Origin: Bacteroidales bacterium
GTDB lineage: Bacteria > Bacteroidota > Bacteroidia > Bacteroidales > F082
Direction of reading: 5' to 3'
Assembly (NCBI GenBank): GCA_017561025.1
Contig: JAFZDU010000074.1
Coordinates: 7,603-71,602, forward strand
DNA length: 64,000 nucleotides
This document shows positions 31,781 to 64,000 of the stretch, piece after piece. The translations under genes and the position numbers were made by a program. Within the stretch, counting starts at the first letter, position 1, and every line of letters begins with the position of its first letter. Under the pieces are notes generated by a model, which saw only the letters and a list, made by a program, of their open reading frames with translations, made no database searches and was not told the DNA's origin.

Positions 31781-31799
31781 TAAGAGATTTTTATAAAAA

Positions 31800-31830
31800 C
31801 TCAGAATCTCAAAATCTCAGAATCTCAGAA
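31800..31830. repeat. Octamer word run CTCAGAAT CTCAAAAT CTCAGAAT CTCAGAA
   Basis: The last unit is the 5' arm of the terminator at 31823-31852. Confidence 0.8.
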
Positions 31831-31852
31831 ATGGGGTTCTGAGATTTTTTTT
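31823..31852 (+). terminator. Intrinsic terminator after 28031-31780
   Basis: TCTCAGAA/TTCTGAGA perfect 8-bp stem followed by T8. The 5' arm is the last unit of the word run at 31800-31830. Confidence 0.75.
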
Positions 31853-31964: not shown

Positions 31965-31992
31965 TAAAAAAGACGCCACAGGGTGACGTCTC
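31965..31992 (-). terminator. Intrinsic terminator after murB (GAGACGU-stem family)
   Basis: Minus strand GGAGACGTCAC-CCT-GTGGCGTCT followed by TTTTTT. Same arms as the terminator at 26026. Confidence 0.7.
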
Positions 31993-31994
31993 CA

Positions 31995-32013
31995 CTTGTA
32001 GTCTTGTAGTCTC
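31995..32013. repeat. Word run CTTGTAGT CTTGTAGT CTC abutting the murB stop
   Basis: On the murB strand the order is stop, GACTACAA x2, then the terminator. Confidence 0.75.
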
Positions 32014-33073
32014 AAACAAGGTTCACTTCCGGTTTAATCTCAATGCCGAATTTCTCTTTCACGCTTTCCTGTATCTTCGTCATGAGGTCGAGAATCTCTT
32101 CAGGTCTGCCGCCGCCGTAATGAACCAGCACGAGCGCCTGCTTGTCCCAGACTCCCACATGATTCTCACGGTAGCCTTTCCATCCCGACTTGTCGATGAG
32201 CCATCCAGCAGGAATCTTCACTCCATTGTCGTTAGGATATGAAGGCACTTCAGGATATGTCTCTTTGATGCTTTGATATTTGTCGACATCGACGATAGGA
32301 TTCTGGAAGAAACTGCCGACGCTGCCAACGACACCTACTTCGGGCAATTTCTCCGCGCGTATCGTCTTGATCGCACTGGCGACGTCATATAGAGTAGGGG
32401 ATTCTATGTTTTTCTTGGAAAGATAATCTTTGATATTGCCATATTCCAACTTCAACTCAGCATTTCTCTTTAGTCTGAAGTCGATGGCGTAGATGAAATA
32501 TTTCTTGTTCTCTTCCTTCTTGAATATGCTGTTACGATAGGCGAACTCGCATTCTTCGTTGTCGAAGACGCGTTCCTCGCCGCTTTCAATGTCGATGGTA
32601 TAAACCTTTGTGATGCAGTCTTTCACCTCGCTGCCGTATGCGCCGATGTTCTGGACAGGAGCAGCACCCACGCTGCCAGGGATGTCGACGAGATTCTCTA
32701 ATCCGTAGAGATTGTTGCTAACAGTGAAATCAACGAAATCCTTCCAAACCTCACCCGACATGCACCTTACGGTAAGGAATTGAGGAATTGAGGAATTGAG
32801 GAATTGAGGAAATTCTTTATCCGTTGACTGTTGACCATCAACAAAAGTAATTCCTTTTAAATTGGAGTGTATTACTACTCCGTCAAAGTATTCTTCAGTG
32901 AAAAGAATGTTGCTTCCGCCTCCAAGGAAAAGTTTCTTAGATTCTTTAAATGTCTTGTCATCAATGAGTTTTTTTATGTCGTCCAATGAATTGACTTCGC
33001 AGAAATATTTTGCGATAACATTGAATCCCATTGTGTTTAAACCTTGAAGAGAATAATCTTTTTTCATCTGCAT
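32012..33073 (-). CDS. murB: UDP-N-acetylenolpyruvoylglucosamine reductase MurB
   Basis: LNTMGFNVIAKYF...LFLGGGSNILF...IPGSVGAAPVQNIGAYG...YRNSIFK. Start set to ATG 33073 (or 33067) because a TAATTTTG -7 box (33083-33090, minus) lies downstream of the ORF-track start at 33115. Contains an in-frame (AGGAATTG)x4 run. Confidence 0.88.
   Translation of the reverse strand: MQMKKDYSLQGLNTMGFNVIAKYFCEVNSLDDIKKLIDDKTFKESKKLFLGGGSNILFTEEYFDGVVIHSNLKGITFVDGQQSTDKEFPQFLNSSIPQFLTVRCMSGEVWKDFVDFTVSNNLYGLENLVDIPGSVGAAPVQNIGAYGSEVKDCITKVYTIDIESGEERVFDNEECEFAYRNSIFKKEENKKYFIYAIDFRLKRNAELKLEYGNIKDYLSKKNIESPTLYDVASAIKTIRAEKLPEVGVVGSVGSFFQNPIVDVDKYQSIKETYPEVPSYPNDNGVKIPAGWLIDKSGWKGYRENHVGVWDKQALVLVHYGGGRPEEILDLMTKIQESVKEKFGIEIKPEVNLV
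32775..32811 (-). repeat. Perfect (AGGAATTG)x4 + AGGAA octamer array inside murB
   Basis: Four exact 8-nt units, translated on the minus strand as PQFLNSSIPQFL. Confidence 0.95.
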
Positions 33074-33082
33074 ATTTTTTTT

Positions 33083-33090
33083 CAAAATTA
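33083..33090 (-). promoter_or_regulatory. -7 box TAATTTTG (minus strand) for murB
   Basis: Plus strand reads CAAAATTA, 10 nt upstream of ATG 33073. Confidence 0.45.
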
Positions 33091-33153
33091 AAAGTTTTTT
33101 GCTAAAGCGAGACATAAAAGAACTAATTTTATAAACTCAAAAAAGATATTAAA

Positions 33154-35419: not shown

Positions 35420-36992
35420 AAACAAGGTCTCAACTAAAAGTGCTGCCGAGCAACTGAATGTCTCTGTTGTAAGTATTCATAACTGGATTAAGGAAGGTAT
35501 CCTGAAAACCACCGACAATCGCATAACTCAGGAATCTCTCGAAGAGTTTAAGAGAGAGTATCTCAATAATAACAAACTTTCAGCTCGCGCGAACAAGCAA
35601 TATAAAGAGTCGCACAATCATAAGTCGTTGACAGAAGAGATAAAGAAAGATCTGAAGTCTTCTATGTCGGGCGACGAACTTTCTACAAAATACGAGTCTT
35701 CATTATCAGATTCATATAAAAATAAAGAAGGAATTTATTACACGCCTCAATATATAGTTGAGGATATGTTAAAATCTATTGACATTACGGAAGACAAAAT
35801 CTTCTTGGATCCTTGTTGTGGTTCGGGTAACTTCATCATAGAGGCTATAAGAAAAGGTGTCTCTCCAGAGAATGTCTATGGCTTTGATACTGATGAGAAT
35901 GCTGTCGCAATAACAAAGAAACGCATTAAAGAAATAAGCGGTTACGAAAGCAAAAATATCATCTGTGGAGACTTCTTAAACCAACAGCCAACAATCAACG
36001 GTCAACAGTTCGATTATATTTTTACAAATCCGCCTTGGGGAAAGAAAATCAATAAGGTGGATAAAATCAGATATTCTTCTTTATATAATTCAGGAAATAG
36101 CACCGACACATCGGCATTGTTTTACTTTGCCTGTTTGAATGTGTTAAAAAAAGATGGCAAGATTGGAATGTTATTACCTGATTCATTCTTTAACATAAGT
36201 TCGTTTGAAAACGCTCGTAAGTCGTTGATGACATTACAGATAAATCGTTTCGTCGATTATGGCAATGCATTCAAAGGACTGATGACCAAGGCGATGGCAT
36301 TTGTAGCTACAAATGGCGAATGGCAAAAGTCTGATGACAAAAGCTTTATAGAATGCGTGATTTATAATGTTAATAAACATTTACGTTCGCAGGAGAGTTT
36401 TGGTGATATACCTAAATGTATCTTTAATTTTCATATTGAAGAAAGTGAAAGCGATATAATACGTCGTGTATTTTCTGTGCCGCATATCAGGTTGAAAGAC
36501 AATGCGAAGTGGGGACTAGGTGTCATTACGGGAAACAACGAGAAAATCTGTAGGAAAGAGAAAGCCGTTGGTTGTGTTCCAATATATAGAGGTAAGGATA
36601 TTATGAAGAATGCCTTGGCAGAACCATCATTGTTTATAGATGAAAATCTAGAAGGATGTCGTCAGGTCGCAGACATGGAGTTGTATAAAGCTTCGGAGAA
36701 AGTGATATATCGTTTTATCTCTAATAAGATAGTCTGTTTTTATGATACAGAACAGCGATATATTTTAAACAGTGCAAACCTTTTTGTCTTGAATGAAGAT
36801 TTTCCAATATCATATTCGCAATTGGTTGATCTTTTGAATTCCGATTTCATGAACTGGCTTTTCAGAAGTATCTTCAATACGCACAAAATACTACGCGGCG
36901 ACTTGGAGTCATTGCCTATCTTTCACGAGTATTTTAAGAAATACGAAACCTTTTCTGAAGAAACTTTGAAGATGTATCTCTCTATCTTGTAG
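35412..36992 (+). CDS. Stand-alone gamma-class N6-adenine DNA methyltransferase (TaqI/Eco57I-like) with N-terminal HTH
   Basis: Motif I LDPCCGSGNFI precedes motif IV FTNPPWGKK. TaqI_C-like C-terminal half (IYRGKDIMKN). N-terminal LNVSVVSIHNWIKEGIL helix-turn-helix. No endonuclease gene on either side. Confidence 0.75.
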   Translation: MKLNKVSTKSAAEQLNVSVVSIHNWIKEGILKTTDNRITQESLEEFKREYLNNNKLSARANKQYKESHNHKSLTEEIKKDLKSSMSGDELSTKYESSLSDSYKNKEGIYYTPQYIVEDMLKSIDITEDKIFLDPCCGSGNFIIEAIRKGVSPENVYGFDTDENAVAITKKRIKEISGYESKNIICGDFLNQQPTINGQQFDYIFTNPPWGKKINKVDKIRYSSLYNSGNSTDTSALFYFACLNVLKKDGKIGMLLPDSFFNISSFENARKSLMTLQINRFVDYGNAFKGLMTKAMAFVATNGEWQKSDDKSFIECVIYNVNKHLRSQESFGDIPKCIFNFHIEESESDIIRRVFSVPHIRLKDNAKWGLGVITGNNEKICRKEKAVGCVPIYRGKDIMKNALAEPSLFIDENLEGCRQVADMELYKASEKVIYRFISNKIVCFYDTEQRYILNSANLFVLNEDFPISYSQLVDLLNSDFMNWLFRSIFNTHKILRGDLESLPIFHEYFKKYETFSEETLKMYLSIL

Positions 36993-37686
36993 TCTTGTAG
37001 TCTTGTTGACTTGTAGTCTTATCTATAACAGTTCCTTCATCGCATTTGATGATTCTTGATGGATATTTCAAGATGAGGTTATAGTTGTGTGTCGCCATGA
37101 AGATTGTTCTGCCTTTTGTGCAGATGTCGCGAAGCAGATCCATGATGTCGTTGGTGGTTTCAGGGTCGAGGTTGCCGGTAGGCTCGTCGGCCAAGATGAG
37201 AGCCGGGTCGTTGAGTAGCGCTCTTGCTATGGCGATGCTCTGCTGCTCGCCGCCCGACAACTGATGAGGCATAGATTTACGTTTGTTTGGAAGTCCCACT
37301 TGTTCCAGCACCTCGTCTATCCTTTTTGACATGGCAGACTTGTCTTTCCATCCAGTAGCGTCTAGCACGAAATAAAGATTGTCTTCTACGTTTCTGTCAT
37401 AAAGAAGCTGGAAGTCTTGAAACACTATGCCTATCTTTCTTCTGAGCATCGGGATGTCGCGTTTCTTTATCGTGCGGAGATTGTAGTCGGCGATGTTGAT
37501 ATCACCTTCTTTGGCAGGCAGGTCTGCATATAATGTCTTGAGAAGAGATGACTTGCCACTTCCTGTTCTTCCTATTAGATATACGAATTCGCCCTCTTCA
37601 ATTTCGAAGTTGACATCTTTCAACACGCAGTTATTGTGCTGAAATATGGAGGCATTCTTTAATGATATGACGCTTTTTGAATTCAT
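36982..37686 (-). CDS. ftsE: Cell-division ABC ATPase FtsE-like
   Basis: Walker A GRTGSGKSSLL, signature LSGGEQQ and Walker B LILADEPTGNLD. The last ~13 codons (DKTTSQQDYKTTR) are encoded by an octamer repeat run. Confidence 0.8.
   Translation of the reverse strand: MNSKSVISLKNASIFQHNNCVLKDVNFEIEEGEFVYLIGRTGSGKSSLLKTLYADLPAKEGDINIADYNLRTIKKRDIPMLRRKIGIVFQDFQLLYDRNVEDNLYFVLDATGWKDKSAMSKRIDEVLEQVGLPNKRKSMPHQLSGGEQQSIAIARALLNDPALILADEPTGNLDPETTNDIMDLLRDICTKGRTIFMATHNYNLILKYPSRIIKCDEGTVIDKTTSQQDYKTTR
36985..37021. repeat. Octamer word run TCTTGTAG x2, TCTTGTTG, ACTTGTAG, TCTTA
   Basis: Contains the stop codons of both convergent genes (methyltransferase TAG 36990-36992, ftsE TAG 36982-36984 on the minus strand). 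Confidence 0.9.
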
Positions 37687-37712: not shown

Positions 37713-37726
37713 AAATATATAAAAAA

Positions 37727-37756
37727 GGCTAAAGGCGAAAGACAAAAGTCTAAAGG
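37727..37756. repeat. Word run GGCTAAAG GCGAAAGA CAAAAGTCTAAAGG
   Basis: xxCTAAAG family. Confidence 0.75.
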
Positions 37757-38905: not shown

Positions 38906-38943
38906 AATTCCTCAAATCCTCAATTCCTTAAATCCTCAGATTC
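38906..38943. repeat. Word run abutting the stop of 38943-39377
   Basis: Minus strand GAATCTGAGGATTTAAGGAATTGAGGATTTGAGGAATT, with stop triplets spaced 8 nt apart that cover all three frames. Confidence 0.85.
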
Positions 38944-40073: not shown

Positions 40074-40099
40074 ATAGTTCAAAGTTCAGTGTTCATAGT

Positions 40100-42001
40100 T
40101 CAAAGTTCACCAAAACTTCTCTTAACAAACTCATTCAAATCTTTACCTTTCAATAAGTTCTTTGAAAGGCGTGCTAAGTCGTATAATTGTTTGATTGTGT
40201 TCTTCTGTGCTTCTTCGTCTTTGTCGGCGAGACCTGCAACGACAGGGTTGTTGACGTTGAGCATGAGGGTGTAGCTGTCTGGCATTGTGCCCCACATCTG
40301 CATTCCGCCGCCCATGGCGCTCATCTCTTTCATACGGCGCATGAACTCGTTTTGTATTATTTCAACAGGAGCGTCGTCTTCGCCTAAGTTGCTGAATTCA
40401 ACGTGGTATGTGACTTTATCGATGATGTTGTCAAATGCCTTCTTGATGTTTTCTTTTTGTTCGTCGTTGAGTTTTGACTCTTTGCTTTCGTCTTCTTTCT
40501 CAATGAGTTTGTCGATAGAAGCAGAGTCGACGCGAGCGAATGAGCAGTCGCCGTATTTTTGTTCTAATGTGCTGATAAAGTGTGAGTCGAGGATGCCGTC
40601 TAACATAAGGACGCTGTAGCCTTTGCTCTTTGCGTTTTCGATGTTGCTGTATTGCTCGTCAGCGTTAGTCGCATAGAGATAAACGAGTCTGTTGTCCTTG
40701 TTCTTCTGGTTTTCTTCGATATGCTTCTTGTATTCTTCTAATGTATAGTAGATGCCGTCGGTGTCTTTTACGAGCATGAATTTCTCTGCTCTCTCGAAGA
40801 ACTTAGGATCTGCTATCATGCCGTATTCGATGAAGACGCTGATGTCGTCCCATTTCTTTTCGTATTCAGCGCGGTCTTTCTTAAAGAGTTCTTCAAGTTT
40901 CTCAGCGACTTTCTTGGTGATATAACCAGAAATCTTCTTGACGTTCTGGTCGTTTTGCAAGAATGAACGGCTTACGTTCAATGGGATGTCTGGTGAGTCG
41001 ATGACGCCGTGGAGCATTGTCAAGAACTCTGGCAAGATGCCGTCGACAGAGTCTGTAACGAAAACTTCGTTGCAATAGAGTTGTATCTTGTTGCGTTGAA
41101 ATTCGTATCTGTTCTTGATTTTAGGGAAGTATAAGATACCTGTCAAGTTGAAAGGATAATCGACGTTGAGGTGGATGTGGAACAAGGGTGTCTCGAAGTT
41201 CATCGGATACAAGACATGATAGAAGTCGTCGTATTCCTTGTCTTCTATTGATGATGGTGACTTCTTCCAGAGTGGAGCGACGTCGTTGATGATCCAAGGT
41301 TTCTCTACTGACTGTGTCTTTGGTTTGCCGTCTTCGTCATTCTCGCCTTCGATGATTTCTTCGACATTCTTTGTTCCGAATTGGATTGGTACTGACAAGA
41401 ACTTACAGTATTTGTTCAGCAACTCGCGGATCTTGCTTTCTTCGAGGAAGTCGGCGCAGTCGTCGGAGATATAAAGAATGACATCTGTTCCGCGTGAGCC
41501 TTTTGGTATCTCGTTCATTGTGTATTCAGGACTGCCGTCGCATTCCCACATAACGCCTTTTTCTTCTTCTGTCTGTCTGAATGACTTGCTGATGAGAGCC
41601 ACTTTGTTTGACACCATGAATGATGAGTAGAATCCTAAACCGAAGTGACCTATGATGTTAGCTGCTTCTGCCTCGCTTTGTGTCTTGAATTTCTCCACGA
41701 ATTCTGTAGCGCCAGAGAAGGCGATTTGGTTGATGTATTTGTCGACTTCAGCGCTTGTCATGCCGATGCCGTTGTCGCGGATGGTGAGAGTCTTTTTCTG
41801 CTTGTCGATCTCGACTCTGATGGTGAGGTCGCCGAGTTCGCCTTTGAATTCGCCTGCTGAAGCGAGAGTCTTGAGTTTGTTGGTCGCATCGACAGCGTTG
41901 CTTACGATCTCACGTAAGAATATTTCGTTTTCTGAATATAAGAACTTCTTGATTACAGGAAAAATGTTTTCCGTTTTTACACCTATTGAACCTGTTTGCA
42001 T
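40100..42001 (-). CDS. htpG: Molecular chaperone HtpG (Hsp90)
   Basis: 633 aa with IFLREIVSNAVDA (GHKL ATPase N box) and IGHFGLGFYSSFMV. Confidence 0.95.
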   Translation of the reverse strand: MQTGSIGVKTENIFPVIKKFLYSENEIFLREIVSNAVDATNKLKTLASAGEFKGELGDLTIRVEIDKQKKTLTIRDNGIGMTSAEVDKYINQIAFSGATEFVEKFKTQSEAEAANIIGHFGLGFYSSFMVSNKVALISKSFRQTEEEKGVMWECDGSPEYTMNEIPKGSRGTDVILYISDDCADFLEESKIRELLNKYCKFLSVPIQFGTKNVEEIIEGENDEDGKPKTQSVEKPWIINDVAPLWKKSPSSIEDKEYDDFYHVLYPMNFETPLFHIHLNVDYPFNLTGILYFPKIKNRYEFQRNKIQLYCNEVFVTDSVDGILPEFLTMLHGVIDSPDIPLNVSRSFLQNDQNVKKISGYITKKVAEKLEELFKKDRAEYEKKWDDISVFIEYGMIADPKFFERAEKFMLVKDTDGIYYTLEEYKKHIEENQKNKDNRLVYLYATNADEQYSNIENAKSKGYSVLMLDGILDSHFISTLEQKYGDCSFARVDSASIDKLIEKEDESKESKLNDEQKENIKKAFDNIIDKVTYHVEFSNLGEDDAPVEIIQNEFMRRMKEMSAMGGGMQMWGTMPDSYTLMLNVNNPVVAGLADKDEEAQKNTIKQLYDLARLSKNLLKGKDLNEFVKRSFGEL

Positions 42002-42196: not shown

Positions 42197-42344
42197 CTTT
42201 AGTCATTTGTCTTTTGACTTTTGTCATTAGTCAATTTCTTTGGGCGTTCCGGCTTTGCCGTCGGGCTTTCCGCTATATCTTTGCTTGCTCCGTTATCACT
42301 CCGCTCGCAAAGGATGCCGCTCCAATCCCTAACGCATTGGGGCG
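42197..42344 (+). repeat. Left arm of a ~150-bp inverted repeat (word run + GC-rich element)
   Basis: The blocks TTTGGGCGTTCCGGCT, CCGTCGGGCTTTCCGCT.TATCTTTGCT.GCTCC and GCTCGCAAAGGATGCCGCTCCAATCCCTAACGCA recur reverse-complemented at 44692-44836. Confidence 0.9.
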
Positions 42345-43433: not shown

Positions 43434-44687
43434 ATGCAAAATTTCATAGATAAACTACAATCATCATTAAAAGAAGGTTCATTTGTAAAACTGACGTTGT
43501 CAAAACCAGTAGGGACGCGATTAATCGCATACGTAGGGACGCGATTAATCGCGTCCGTACAAGGACAATCAATAGAAGAATTACGTAACGTCTACGTGAA
43601 ACCTATCATCCTCAAAAACGAGAAGATGTATTCTTTCACATATCGTTACGAGAGAAGAGACGAGACCAAGAACTATGACGCTGAGCAGACTCTTGAGGTA
43701 ATCACGGAATTGCTTTCTGGAATATTTCTCAATGCTTCGTTGTTCACTCTTACTGAAGACGTCACTCTTCTCGTGAGCAAGAAAGGCAAGGCTACTGTCA
43801 TGTGCAAGGCTGTCAAGGAACAGAGAGAGCAGAACGTGCAGCACGACAAAGTCAAGAATCGTCTGATAAATACGGATAATCCTTGGTGGTTTAAGTTAGG
43901 TCTGACAACACGCGAAGGCAAGGTCACTGCTGACATGCAGCATAAGTTCAAGCAGATTTGCAAATATGTCGAGATTGTTGACGGCGTGATGAAGAACGTG
44001 AAGTTCGATGGCAAGATCCGCATCGCCGACATGGGAGCAGGGAAAGGTTATCTCACTTTTGCCTTATATGAATATCTCACACAGAAATGCAAATACGACA
44101 TCATGATGGAAGGCGTGGAGATACGTCCTGACTTAGTCGTTAAAATCAACGAGATAATAAAAGAATCAAATTTGAAAGACTTTCGTTTTGTGGAAAGTAG
44201 TATAGAATCCTTCGGATGTGGATGTCAACAGACAATGCCAAAGGTTCAAAGTTCAGAGTTCAAAGTTCAAAGTCAATTAGATGTCCTCATCGCTCTTCAT
44301 GCATGCAACACTGCCACCGACGATGCTATTATAAAAGGTATAAAGTCTGGGGCTAAGTTAATCATCTGCGCTCCTTGTTGTCACAAGCAGATCCGTCAGG
44401 AGATGGAGAAGTCGAAAGTCGTTGATCCTATCACACGTTACGGCATCTTCCTGGAACGTCAGGCGGTGATGATTACTGATGCGATACGGGCCTTGATAAT
44501 GGAATATTACGGTTACAAGACACAGGTGATGGAGTTCATCGAGATGGAACATACTCCTAAAAACATATTGCTCGTTGGAAGAAAGAGCGATGCACCGGTC
44601 GATAAAGAATCCATTTTGAAGCAGATAGAAGAATTGAAGAAACAATACGGAATAGAGAGACATTATCTGGAGAGAATCTTTGATTAA
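43434..44687 (+). CDS. Class I SAM-dependent methyltransferase (Methyltransf_32-like)
   Basis: SAM motif IADMGAGKGYLTFALY and LIALHACNTATDDAI. Carries two in-frame repeat insertions (43509-43556 and 44243-44274). Confidence 0.7.
   Translation: MQNFIDKLQSSLKEGSFVKLTLSKPVGTRLIAYVGTRLIASVQGQSIEELRNVYVKPIILKNEKMYSFTYRYERRDETKNYDAEQTLEVITELLSGIFLNASLFTLTEDVTLLVSKKGKATVMCKAVKEQREQNVQHDKVKNRLINTDNPWWFKLGLTTREGKVTADMQHKFKQICKYVEIVDGVMKNVKFDGKIRIADMGAGKGYLTFALYEYLTQKCKYDIMMEGVEIRPDLVVKINEIIKESNLKDFRFVESSIESFGCGCQQTMPKVQSSEFKVQSQLDVLIALHACNTATDDAIIKGIKSGAKLIICAPCCHKQIRQEMEKSKVVDPITRYGIFLERQAVMITDAIRALIMEYYGYKTQVMEFIEMEHTPKNILLVGRKSDAPVDKESILKQIEELKKQYGIERHYLERIFD
43509..43556 (+). repeat. In-frame 24-nt tandem duplication carrying a 20-nt perfect palindrome, inside the methyltransferase CDS
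   Basis: GTAGGGACGCGATTAATCGCATAC / GTAGGGACGCGATTAATCGCGTCC. The palindrome GGACGCGATTAATCGCGTCC spans 43537-43556. Encodes VGTRLIAY/VGTRLIAS. Confidence 0.9.
44243..44274 (+). repeat. In-frame GTTCAAAG word run inside the methyltransferase CDS
   Basis: GGTTCAAA GTTCAGA GTTCAAA GTTCAAAGTC. The 17-mer at 44258-44274 is the reverse complement of intergenic 61027-61043. Confidence 0.85.
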
Positions 44688-44691
44688 CTTT

Positions 44692-44836
44692 CCCCTTTGC
44701 GTTAGGGATTGGAGCGGCATCCTTTGCGAGCGGAGCGAGCAAAGATAGAGCGGAAAGCCCGACGGCGGAGCTGAAGGCGTAGCCGGAACGCCCAAAAAAA
44801 GACTAAAGACTAATGACAAAAGCCGAAAGACTAAAG
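44692..44836 (-). repeat. Right arm of the ~150-bp inverted repeat
   Basis: See 42197-44344. Starts 5 nt after the methyltransferase stop. Followed by further word units at 44845-44883. Confidence 0.9.
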
Positions 44837-44984
44837 AATTTTTAGATTAAAGTTTGAAATGTAAAGAGGTTAAAGTCCAAGGCAAAAAATAAATTTAAAA
44901 AACTCTTTCCATATAAATAAAAATGTTTATCTTCGTGGACTTGAAAAAAACACAAAGTATTTAACGTTAAAAAAAATAAATATC

Positions 44985-51308: not shown

Positions 51309-51334
51309 TTTATGACGAAAGTCTAAAGACAAAA

Positions 51335-51367
51335 GGCTAAAGGTTTTCCCGACCTTTAGCCTTTTTT
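51335..51367 (+). terminator. Intrinsic terminator after 48045-51308
   Basis: GGCTAAAGGT/ACCTTTAGCC perfect 10-bp stem followed by T6. The 5' arm continues the word run at 51321-51343. Confidence 0.8.
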
Positions 51368-58631: not shown

Positions 58632-58664
58632 AATGAGGAATTAGGAGTTAGGAATTAGGAATGA
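58632..58664. repeat. Word run AATGAGGAATTAGGAGTTAGGAATTAGGAATGA
   Basis: GAATTAGG family. Shares a 15-mer with the rimO insertion. Confidence 0.8.
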
Positions 58665-61026: not shown

Positions 61027-61064
61027 GACTTTGAACTTTGAACTGTTGTCTGTTGTCTGTTGTC
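61027..61064. repeat. Word runs (GACTTTGAA CTTTGAAC)(TGTTGTC x3)
   Basis: Distal to the secDF terminator. Confidence 0.85.
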
Positions 61065-61096
61065 AAAAAAAAGAGCCCCTGAAAATCAGGAGCTCT
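61065..61096 (-). terminator. Intrinsic terminator after secDF
   Basis: Minus strand AGAGCTCCTGA-TTT-TCAGGGGCTCT (one U-G) followed by T8. Confidence 0.75.
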
Positions 61097-61101
61097 CTCA
61101 A

Positions 61102-61133
61102 CTTTAGCCATTAGCCATTAGCCATTAGCCAAT
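61102..61133. repeat. Octamer run (CCATTAGC)x3.5 abutting the secDF stop
   Basis: On the secDF strand TAA is followed by TTGGCTAATGGCTAATGGCTAATGGCTAAAG. Confidence 0.9.
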
Positions 61134-64000
61134 TATTTCTTTTTTGTATTAGCTGCTTCTAATTCTGCATCGTATTCTTTACCTTTGAAAAGTCTGTATG
61201 CCAAAGGTGTAGCGATGAACATTGAAGAGAATGTACCAGCGATCATACCAACTAACAATGCGAATACGAAACCGCGGATTGTTTCACCACCGAAGATGAA
61301 GATTGCTAACAATACGACTATTGTTGTACCTGATGTGTTGATAGAACGTAACAATGTGCTGTTGTTTGCACTGTTGAAGAGCTCTCTCCAGCCTTTCTTA
61401 GGGAATAATGTAACGTTTTCACGTACACGGTCGAAGATAACCACTGTGTTGTTGATTGAGTAACCGATGATTGTCAAAACAGCAGCGATGAATGATTGGT
61501 TGACTTCCATTGTGAATGGTAATACATTGTTGAGCAATGAGTACATACCGATAACGATCAATGTGTCGTGAGCCAAACAAACGATGCTTGACAAACCATA
61601 TTGCCATCTTCTGAAACGGATAGCGATGTAAACGAACATAACAACGAGTGATACGATAACAGCAACGACAGCTTTACGTGTTACGTCGTCAGCAACTGTA
61701 GCACCAACTTTTTGTGAGCTTAAGATACCGAGTAATACGTTGCTCTTGTCTGAGTCTGTTGTGAATTGTTCGTATGTCATTTCTGTGTTGTACAAGCCTT
61801 TGAGTGCGTTGTAGATGAGACCTTGGATTTCTGCGTCAACGTCTTGTGCGTTGTCGTTGATCTTATAGTCTGTTGTTATCTTAACTTGGCGGCTTGGACC
61901 GTATGTCTTAACTTCTGGAACGCTTTCGAATTCTTTAACGTTTGCTAAAGCGCTGCGTACTTCGTTAACTGTAACGTCTTTGTCGAAACGTACAACATAG
62001 TTACGTCCACCTTTGAAGTCGATACCGAGGTTTAATCCACGTACTGCGATTGAACCAACGCTGATAACGATGAAGATAACTGCGATGATAGCTGCTCTCT
62101 TACCGAAACCGATGAAGTCGAATGCTGTGTTCTTTAAGAAGTCGCGTGTGGCGTTATTTGAGAAGTTGATGTTCTTGTCTTTCTTCAACCAGCCTTCAAA
62201 TACTAAACGTGAGATGAAGATTGATGTGAACAATGATGTAGCGATACCAATCATCAATGTTGTTGCGAAACCTTGAACAGGACCTGTACCGAATTGGAAC
62301 AATACGAATGCTGTCAAGAATGTTGTGATGTTACCGTCGATGATAGCTGAGTAAGCAGCTTTGTAACCGTCTGCGATAGCTGTTCTTAAACCTTTACCTG
62401 CGCGTAATTCTTCTTTGATACGTTCGAAGATGATAACGTTAGAGTCAACTGCCATACCGAGTGTCAAAACGATACCTGCGAGACCTGGCAATGTCAATAC
62501 TGTTCCGAATGATGCTAATACGCCGAACATGAAGAAGATGTTGACTAATAAAGCTGCGTCTGCTGCGATACCAGCTTTGTTGTAGAAGAACATCATATAA
62601 ATAAGAACGAGGATGAAAGCGATGATGAGTGACCAGAGACCTGATTGGATAGCTTCTTGACCTAATGATGGACCAACAACGTTTTCTTCGAGGATTCTTG
62701 CTGGAGCTGGTAATTTACCTGCTTTCAAGATGTTAGCTAAGTCTTGTGCTTCTTCAACTGTCATGTCACCGCCAGAGATTGATGAACGTACGCTTGGGAT
62801 TTCATCGTTAACAACTGGATATGAATATACGTAGTTGTCGAGAACGATAGCAACTTGTCTGCCGATGTTTTCACCTGTTAAGCGTTTCCATGCTTTAGCG
62901 CCTTCGCTGTTCATTTGGATTGTAACTTCAACGCGACCGTTTTGATCGTAGTCTTGACGAGCGTCAACGATAACTTCACCGCCGAGAGCAGCTTTGTTGT
63001 CACGTGATGTCTTTAATGCAACGAGGTCGATATATTCAACGCCACCCATTGTGTTAGGTTTTACGCACCATGCGAATCTAACGTTACGTGGGAATACGTT
63101 CTTAACTTGCTTGAGCATTCTGTTGATGTTAGCTGTATCTTTTACTAAAGCCATACCAACGCGTGCTGTTTGAGCTGGGTATGTTTGACCCATTTCGTTT
63201 TGATAGTAAGAAGGTGTCAAATAGTTGTAGATAGGGAAGTTAGCTCTCATTTCTTTCAAAGCTTCTTCTTGTGCTTTTAAAGTGTCGTTTGCTAAAAGAG
63301 CTGGTTCGTTATCACTATTTTCTTCTTTAACTTCTTCTGTTAAAGCTTCGTTTGCTTTGTTGATTTCAGCAAGACGTTTGTTAGCTTCGTCGAAATATTC
63401 GTAAAGTTCTGTGAAGTTGTATGTTTCCCAGAATTCGAGTTGTGCTGTACCTTGTAAGAGTTTGCGAACACGTTTAGGATCTTTGATACCTGGGAGTTCA
63501 ACAAGGATACGTCCTGAGTTTTCTAATTTTTGGATGTTTGGTTGTGCAACGCCGAAACGGTCGATACGTGTTCTTAAGATTTGGTATGAACGGTCGATAG
63601 CGCTGTTTGTTTCGTCTTTGATAACGCTCAAAACTTCAGCGTTTGTTGAGTTGACTGTTATACCTTTGTCTTTGAATTCGAACAAGAAGATAGGAGCTAA
63701 TTTTGCATTAGGATCTAATTGTTGGAAAGCGTCACCGAACAAGTCAACATAATCTCTTTGGCTGTTGAGGTGTTGTTCGTTAGCCATTTGGATAGCTTGG
63801 ACGAAAACTGGGTCTGTGCTGTGGCCTGAAAGAACTTCGATGATGTCTGGAACTGAAACTTCCATCATAACGTTCATACCACCTTTAAGGTCGAGACCTA
63901 AGTTGATTTCCATTTCTTTTGCTTGACGATAAGTTTGTCCTAATGGATAAACTTTCACTGTGCTCATTGAATCTAAATAATAAGTTTCTCTAGCACTTTG
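61133..64000 (-). CDS. secDF: Protein translocase subunit SecDF (fused), 5' end outside the window
   Basis: INLGLDLKGGMNV and two RND-like 6-TM bundles. The reading frame stays open upstream of the ORF-track Met (63967) to the window edge. Confidence 0.9.
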   Translation of the reverse strand, partial: QSARETYYLDSMSTVKVYPLGQTYRQAKEMEINLGLDLKGGMNVMMEVSVPDIIEVLSGHSTDPVFVQAIQMANEQHLNSQRDYVDLFGDAFQQLDPNAKLAPIFLFEFKDKGITVNSTNAEVLSVIKDETNSAIDRSYQILRTRIDRFGVAQPNIQKLENSGRILVELPGIKDPKRVRKLLQGTAQLEFWETYNFTELYEYFDEANKRLAEINKANEALTEEVKEENSDNEPALLANDTLKAQEEALKEMRANFPIYNYLTPSYYQNEMGQTYPAQTARVGMALVKDTANINRMLKQVKNVFPRNVRFAWCVKPNTMGGVEYIDLVALKTSRDNKAALGGEVIVDARQDYDQNGRVEVTIQMNSEGAKAWKRLTGENIGRQVAIVLDNYVYSYPVVNDEIPSVRSSISGGDMTVEEAQDLANILKAGKLPAPARILEENVVGPSLGQEAIQSGLWSLIIAFILVLIYMMFFYNKAGIAADAALLVNIFFMFGVLASFGTVLTLPGLAGIVLTLGMAVDSNVIIFERIKEELRAGKGLRTAIADGYKAAYSAIIDGNITTFLTAFVLFQFGTGPVQGFATTLMIGIATSLFTSIFISRLVFEGWLKKDKNINFSNNATRDFLKNTAFDFIGFGKRAAIIAVIFIVISVGSIAVRGLNLGIDFKGGRNYVVRFDKDVTVNEVRSALANVKEFESVPEVKTYGPSRQVKITTDYKINDNAQDVDAEIQGLIYNALKGLYNTEMTYEQFTTDSDKSNVLLGILSSQKVGATVADDVTRKAVVAVIVSLVVMFVYIAIRFRRWQYGLSSIVCLAHDTLIVIGMYSLLNNVLPFTMEVNQSFIAAVLTIIGYSINNTVVIFDRVRENVTLFPKKGWRELFNSANNSTLLRSINTSGTTIVVLLAIFIFGGETIRGFVFALLVGMIAGTFSSMFIATPLAYRLFKGKEYDAELEAANTKKK

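Follow-up and report, generated by a model that had tools for sequence, protein, structure and literature searches.

The window, by which is meant the whole stretch of 64,000 nucleotides analysed here, carries on its minus strand an open reading frame (32012..33115) that encodes 367 aa when read as the longest ORF; near-identical proteins annotated at NCBI begin with MKKDYS and are 351 aa long, with a start near 33067. The product contains the Pfam domains FAD_binding_4 (PF01565, E 1.6e-14) and MurB_C (PF02873, E 2.6e-24) and matches P. aeruginosa MurB (4jay) with E 8e-76 over residues 14-366, and its AlphaFold model aligns in Foldseek with 4jay, 3i99, 2q85 and 1mbb at TM 0.69-0.74. The arginine of YR(D/N)S, the serine of GSFF(K/Q)NP and the glutamate of the C-terminal (E/K)PE are aligned identically to 4jay, the three catalytic motifs of MurB are invariant in the alignment of homologs (A1), and the motif residues presumably correspond to R159, S229 and E325 of the E. 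coli enzyme. The ORF is murB, encoding UDP-N-acetylenolpyruvoylglucosamine reductase of the long E. coli/Pseudomonas type, an enzyme essential for peptidoglycan synthesis.

Inside this gene, at 32775..32811, lies a perfect octamer array (period 8, 4.6 copies, 100% matches) that reads AGGAATTG on the plus strand and CAATTCCT on the coding (minus) strand, as determined with TRF and by direct reading of the sequence. Both the array and its in-frame MurB translation, ...EFPQFLNSSIPQFLT..., had been claimed in the original prediction, and both are borne out; the array product is FPQFLNSSIPQFL, at about residues 102-114 of MurB. Among arrays of 5-12-nt units it is the longest perfect one in the window and the sole perfect one within an ORF, and perfect period-8 runs of this length are expected about 6e-13 times per 64 kb. 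The strand asymmetry that had been claimed is likewise present in the letters: CAATTCCT has no stop trinucleotide in any phase, and the AGGAATTG strand has one TGA per unit, which in an octamer repeat hits all three frames. Directly 5' of the octamer array is a remnant heptamer pair, CAACAGT CAACGGA (32820..32833, minus strand), encoding QQSTD. The related intergenic array at 38906..38943 (plus strand) is also real; it reads AATTCCTC AAATCCTC AATTCCTT AAATCCTC, and this AATTCCTC/AAATCCTC array belongs to the word family of the MurB-loop arrays of the window and of relative L019.

The octamer array and the heptamer remnant both fall in a hypervariable loop-coding segment (32771..32848, minus strand) between the invariant motifs HSNLKGI and VRCMSGE, which has 26 codons in the window versus 11 in outgroup MurB and in 4jay; the alignment with 4jay opens a 15-residue gap facing DGQQSTDKEFPQFLN. 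The comparison set consisted of 41 related genomes of uncultured gut Bacteroidales (from water buffalo, yak, cattle, deer and horse), in which MurB has 54-64% identity in the outgroup and 65-95% identity in the ingroup, the clade of the window. All 20 outgroup loci (L020-L037, L039, L040) have the 11-residue loop. Ingroup loops are 17-33 residues long, with the lone exception of L018, which has the minimal 11 residues and no array. In the AlphaFold model, whose mean pLDDT of 69 denotes moderate confidence and which was used for loop placement only and not for distances, residues 95-110 form a coil with pLDDT <50 between strands 89-91 and 113-119. The array segment is an insertion specific to this lineage, and it sits in a beta-hairpin loop that is disordered and belongs to the FAD-binding domain; this agrees with the proposal that the segment is an insertion, which the P. 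aeruginosa enzyme and the 20 outgroup genomes support with their 11-residue loops, and the suggested mapping to a surface loop likewise leads to low-confidence coil between two strands. A check of sister genomes, also suggested, finds periodic loops in most ingroup genomes, none in L018 and none at the 20 outgroup loci.

The possibility that an error of assembly or sequencing produced the array or its copy number is effectively refuted for the in-frame array and is given next to no weight here. The identical 37-nt run has been assembled independently in L093, and the corresponding protein, P0124, is found on 6 contigs; periodic homologous loops occur in more than 20 species from various studies and assemblers; and the murB reading frame is intact. 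The one point in favor of an artefact is that assemblers do stumble on these arrays, since in the contigs L085 and L086 a chimeric junction falls exactly at the tract. Both contigs are short and of low coverage; they leave murB inside the tract (L085 946-1310, L086 930-1209) and run on into other, unrelated genes, and assembly through unit-sharing arrays probably produced them. Their junctions show that identical units exist at several loci per genome.

Comparison of the ingroup genomes shows that the DNA between HSNLKGI and VRCMSGE is periodic in most of them, that the units differ, and that the loop arrays of most relatives are degenerate. The CAATTCCT unit is found in the window (as the 37-nt perfect run), in L081 and in L001, where its 3' end is degenerate. 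L082 has a near-identical backbone, its protein sharing a 90% cluster with that of the window, but its loop instead reads ATTCTAGA GTTCCAGA GTTCTAAA ATTCTAGA ATTCTCAA. A third unit, CAGAATCT, forms a 39-nt perfect run in six samples (L087-L092) assembled with two assemblers, and other relatives have CAGCAACT (L008 and L046), GAAACTCA/GTAACTCA (L015 and L047), CCTCAAAT (L019) or the heptamers CAACAGA/CAACGGA (L005, L011 and L014). The heptamer pair that is a remnant in the window is expanded to 6-7 units in L005 and to 3-4 units in L011 and L014. The loop sequences thus indicate that the MurB loop has been recolonised, or its array turned over, with different units in different species. Lengths of the loop DNA differ by three units: 78 versus 54 nt (24 nt, or three octamers) and 99 versus 78 nt (21 nt, or three heptamers), and the proteins P0038 and P0181, members of one 90% cluster, differ by exactly NSSNPEFL. 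These 24-nt and 21-nt steps are the only ones seen among in-frame alleles, as anticipated from the claim that only changes of three units keep the frame.

A second octamer array, ACTACAAG x2.2 (31995..32012, minus strand), directly follows the murB stop codon and is itself followed directly by a terminator-like hairpin with a T-run (31969..31993, minus strand). Close relatives have 2, 4 or 5 units of ACTACAAG at this position, a series not confined to three-unit steps, and unit number therefore appears to move freely where no reading frame constrains it. Farther on, an array of AAAATCTC/AGAATCTC (31795..31832, plus strand) forms the 5' arm of a terminator-like hairpin that spans 31795-31848 and has a 17-bp stem and a T-run; its unit is the MurB-loop unit CAGAATCT of L038 and L087-L092. 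Arrays abutting stop codons were considered as a functional signal and set aside: intergenic spacers average ~125 nt, so closeness of arrays to gene ends is partly unavoidable. Upstream of murB, many relatives have a heptamer array of GACAACA/ACAACGG (in L004-L009 near position 2939) whose unit family is that of the heptamers inside the loop, and gene callers turn this upstream array into spurious N-terminal extensions such as MEGQRTTDNRQQT (P0006, P0012, P0037 and others).

The window as a whole contains 24 arrays of 7- or 8-nt units, 20 of which lie in the 7.5% of the DNA that is non-coding (p 3e-19), and several unit families (AAAGnCn, AGTTCAA, AATTAGG, AATTATG, CTTGTAGn and AAtTCCTs) recur at unrelated sites. 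Across the ingroup, 435 pairs of units are within one mismatch of each other compared to 75 ± 8 for shuffled units, an excess that is partly due to orthologous sites across loci. With murB excluded, array density is 4.25 per 10 kb in ingroup flanks and 0.66 per 10 kb in outgroup flanks (p 4e-6); arrays are thus ~6-fold denser in the clade of the window than in the outgroup. The MurB-loop units are within this common vocabulary, the unit of the window matching the array at 38906-38943 and the CAGAATCT unit of L038 and L087 matching that at 31795-31832. Far from being an isolated oddity, the murB array belongs to a population of 7/8-nt arrays that extends across the clade.

Several features of individual arrays were observed in passing. 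Four imperfect heptamer arrays of the AAAGnCn family (37724-37756, 42197-42241, 44798-44837 and 51314-51343, one of them on the opposite strand) have variable positions that look patterned and an inconsistent orientation to transcription. A search of Rfam returned no family overlapping any array in the window; its sole match is a Flavo-1 sRNA (RF01705, 42255-42348, minus strand) that, at 44 bits, is barely above the gathering score and, in an intergenic region between divergent genes, directly adjoins the array at 42197-42241. Three arrays crowd one terminator at 61028-61131, downstream of ORF 61133-63967: TTAGCCA x4 (perfect), CTGTTGT x3 (perfect; the reverse complement of the loop heptamer ACAACAG) and ACTTTGA x2.4.

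Other in-frame arrays in the window are found in a RimO-like enzyme, a methyltransferase and an ABC ATPase. In the RimO-like methylthiotransferase (ORF 1025-2341) the heptamers AATGAGG AATTAGG AATTAGA AATGAGG (1371-1408) are read in frame as LRNEELGIRNEEL in the linker between the UPF0004 and Radical_SAM domains, and the same unit is also intergenic at 58632-58662; this array was rejected as a length insertion, as linker residues are overwritten and nothing is gained in length over T. maritima RimO (4jc0). The protein with a Methyltransf_32 domain (ORF 43434-44687) has CAAAGTT x4.9 in frame at 44239-44273, encoding PKVQSSEFKVQS, and this unit family is intergenic too, at 40076-40109 and 61028-61044. 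An octamer array, TCTTGTAG x4.5 (36985-37020), lies across the convergent ends of two ORFs and encodes the C-terminal tail KTTSQQDYKTTR of the ABC-transporter ATPase (36982-37686, minus strand).

The common vocabulary of loop and intergenic arrays, together with the retention of intergenic arrays at orthologous positions across species, beside stop codons and terminators, would be expected if the arrays bound a DNA- or RNA-binding factor, in which case the murB copy would regulate the mRNA or mark the locus and its peptide would be incidental; a similar role has been proposed for the TAACTGA heptamer repeats (PMC4679880). However, close relatives differ in the loop unit (CAATTCCT versus ATTCTAGA) on a near-identical backbone, the tract is missing from L018 and from the outgroup, the orientation of arrays to transcription varies between sites, and the analysis yielded no candidate binding factor. 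A cis-element embedded in murB is therefore regarded as unlikely.

The explanation that we favor, and consider probable, is that a short-repeat process acting across the genome brought arrays into a permissive loop, where purifying selection keeps the resulting frameshift-prone site in frame. The murB array would then be a young, still perfect member of the clade-wide population of 7-/8-nt tandem arrays, which fill intergenic DNA and occasionally settle in permissive parts of proteins such as loops, linkers and termini; in the MurB loop it is read in frame because this orientation is free of stops in every phase. The tract would be remodelled by slipped-strand mispairing or unequal exchange. 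Intergenic arrays would change by any number of units, and the survivors in murB would be three-unit changes (24 or 21 nt), since one-unit changes would frameshift the gene and be removed by selection. With one-unit frameshifts purged in this manner the array would be a tolerated mutational hazard and not a device. That slippage drives the changes and that selection filters them is inferred from the pattern, and the encoded loop peptide would have no function of its own. Plain slippage on random sequence leaves two observations unexplained, namely that the same few units turn up at unrelated sites and across species, and that the enrichment is limited to periods 7 and 8. The presence of near-equal perfect arrays (37 and 39 nt) at one spot in two lineages could hint at selection for repetitiveness.

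Two alleles that lack one unit bear directly on the reading frame. L081, an ENA contig from a close relative, has TTTCCT(CAATTCCT)x3 where the window has x4, a run of 29 nt versus 37; its N-terminal reading terminates at ...SSIPNSKMHVG*, and murB is undamaged in the +1 frame to the end of the contig. L038, a 13.9-kb MAG contig, has (CAGAATCT)x3 where in-frame relatives have x4 (30 nt versus 38-39); the 251 codons downstream are intact to the native stop, and addition of one unit restores a complete ORF with the loop of P0061. The claim that loss of a single unit would frameshift murB is thus matched by two alleles in public assemblies. They are the only tract-internal frameshifts among several hundred sequences, and each is a singleton; a metagenome scan returned only four ingroup alleles, all four in frame. 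If one-unit changes are lethal, the two consensus alleles must be artefacts, or else the frameshift is somehow survivable. Both contigs were assembled by MEGAHIT, whose default k list includes 29, and runs of 29 and 30 nt are the shortest path through the repeat cycle at k=29; the missing units could therefore be assembler artefacts, although three other MEGAHIT assemblies recovered the 39-nt run, which makes an artefact less likely.

Other short or truncated MurB sequences were considered as products of slippage and rejected. P0177 and P0203 (249 aa, equal in length to the stretch from Met119 to the end) are not frameshifted C-terminal halves, as their contigs begin inside the loop, in frame. 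The contigs of the truncated P0233 and P0236 exit murB within the tract into unrelated DNA and are probably chimeric joins via shared units, and P0244-P0246, short members of the P0232 cluster, are unrelated C-terminal fragments drawn in by a chimeric sequence.

The same two alleles, each minus exactly one unit and otherwise undamaged, invite comparison with the SSR contingency loci of Haemophilus, Neisseria and Campylobacter, in which a non-triplet tract likewise lies within an ORF and a one-unit change shifts the frame. A contingency locus in murB would be a tract selected for mutability, whose one-unit gains and losses would toggle the gene ON and OFF in a bet-hedging subpopulation, and the unit of 8 nt, not a multiple of three, within an ORF and perfect in two lineages, has the form that this calls for. 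The known loci, however, have long tracts, dispensable surface or restriction-modification functions and demonstrated reversible switching, whereas the murB tract is short and lies in an essential gene. Known switching tracts are usually much longer than the 4.6 units of murB, and the MurB product is not of the conditionally dispensable class (surface, restriction-modification or host interaction); since MurB is essential, OFF cells should die. Nor has the tract been kept long and perfect, since the arrays of most relatives have degenerated and L018 has no array. Each out-of-frame allele was encountered once, against several hundred in-frame sequences, with a run at the shortest k=29 path, and like arrays are also present between genes and in housekeeping genes other than murB. 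Because the tract is short, the gene essential, the arrays of relatives decayed and the out-of-frame alleles singletons, an adaptive switch is judged quite unlikely. Of the alternatives offered in the original prediction, a fragile site or a contingency-type switch, the former stands, in that one-unit losses do frameshift the gene, and the latter does not. A literature search for murB with SSRs or phase variation found no relevant report.

A frameshift could be survivable, and one-unit slips reversible, if translation were to restart just beyond the tract. The codon of Met119 in RCMSGE (32759..32761, minus strand), a possible and speculative reinitiation point, is invariant in the ingroup and is replaced by Y/F in the outgroup. 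Both out-of-frame readings end within about 10 nt of the Met119 ATG, one at a TAA 5 nt before it and the other at a TGA that overlaps the ATG in ATGTCGGGTGA, and ribosomes could therefore reinitiate there, yielding a two-piece MurB (1-118 + 119-367) split at the disordered loop. This scheme predicts consensus alleles that lack one unit in a gene otherwise intact, as in L081 and L038. We hold it to be very unlikely; if true, the tract would switch an essential cell-wall enzyme from one chain to two and back, the split form probably being the less active, and would constitute a phase switch in a core gene.

The favored reading, colonisation of a permissive loop by a repeat process that acts throughout the genome, places the murB array among repeats that have been described elsewhere. 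In Cyanobacteria, STRR are families of tandem heptamers dispersed through the intergenic DNA of one lineage; the likeness of the present arrays to these dispersed heptamers is one of general description, and the phylum differs. Long simple-sequence repeats (LSSRs) with 5-11-nt units are known from prokaryotic genomes (Mrazek et al., 2007, as summarised in PMC4679880). In that summary they are attributed to polymerase slippage, and like the arrays of the window they have short non-triplet units with heptamers prominent, are mostly non-coding and occur sporadically across lineages. The window contains many arrays of 5-11-nt units, far above chance and mostly in non-coding DNA. As far as the summary describes LSSRs, the present arrays differ in that octamers are as common as heptamers, in that the description does not extend to uncultured Bacteroidales of the ruminant and equine gut, and in that non-triplet arrays stand in frame within the core of an essential enzyme, whereas the coding-region repeats of the survey, as summarised, were mostly multiples of three (PMC4679880).

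A further parallel is offered by TAACTGA, a heptamer that forms direct repeats in Beggiatoaceae, Cyanobacteria and five Bacteroidetes (MacGregor, 2015, PMC4679880). Its arrays too are abundant between genes, have 2-6 copies and lie near the ends of genes, with stops in all frames in one orientation and a translatable sequence in the other; copies inside ORFs are rare and occupy permissive positions, among them the C-terminus of MurG (PMC4679880). In-ORF copies of TAACTGA are, however, found mainly at protein termini (PMC4679880) and the murB copy is in an internal loop; TAACTGA is one unit, whereas the window has many unit families; and the main location of the arrays in the window is near stop codons and terminators rather than upstream of start codons alone. 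The repeats themselves are not shared, as a search of the window for TAACTGATAACTGA with up to 2 mismatches gave 0 matches. The murB array belongs with the long simple-sequence repeats of prokaryotes.

In an essential gene, every slip by one unit of a non-triplet tandem repeat amounts to a null mutation, and such genes therefore normally lack repeats of this kind; here a whole clade of gut Bacteroidales tolerates such arrays in MurB, with units turned over repeatedly at one loop. In practical terms the arrays break assemblies and produce apparent pseudogenes in MAGs. The small vocabulary of 7/8-nt units that these genomes share beside stops and terminators, at a density ~6-fold that of the sister clade, suggests that a process not yet described generates or uses repeats in these uncultured bacteria. 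The murB loop and its relatives thus offer a natural system for asking how strong a mutational hazard selection tolerates, how repeat arrays are born, homogenised and lost to decay, and which positions of a drug-target enzyme accept arbitrary insertions of 6-22 residues.
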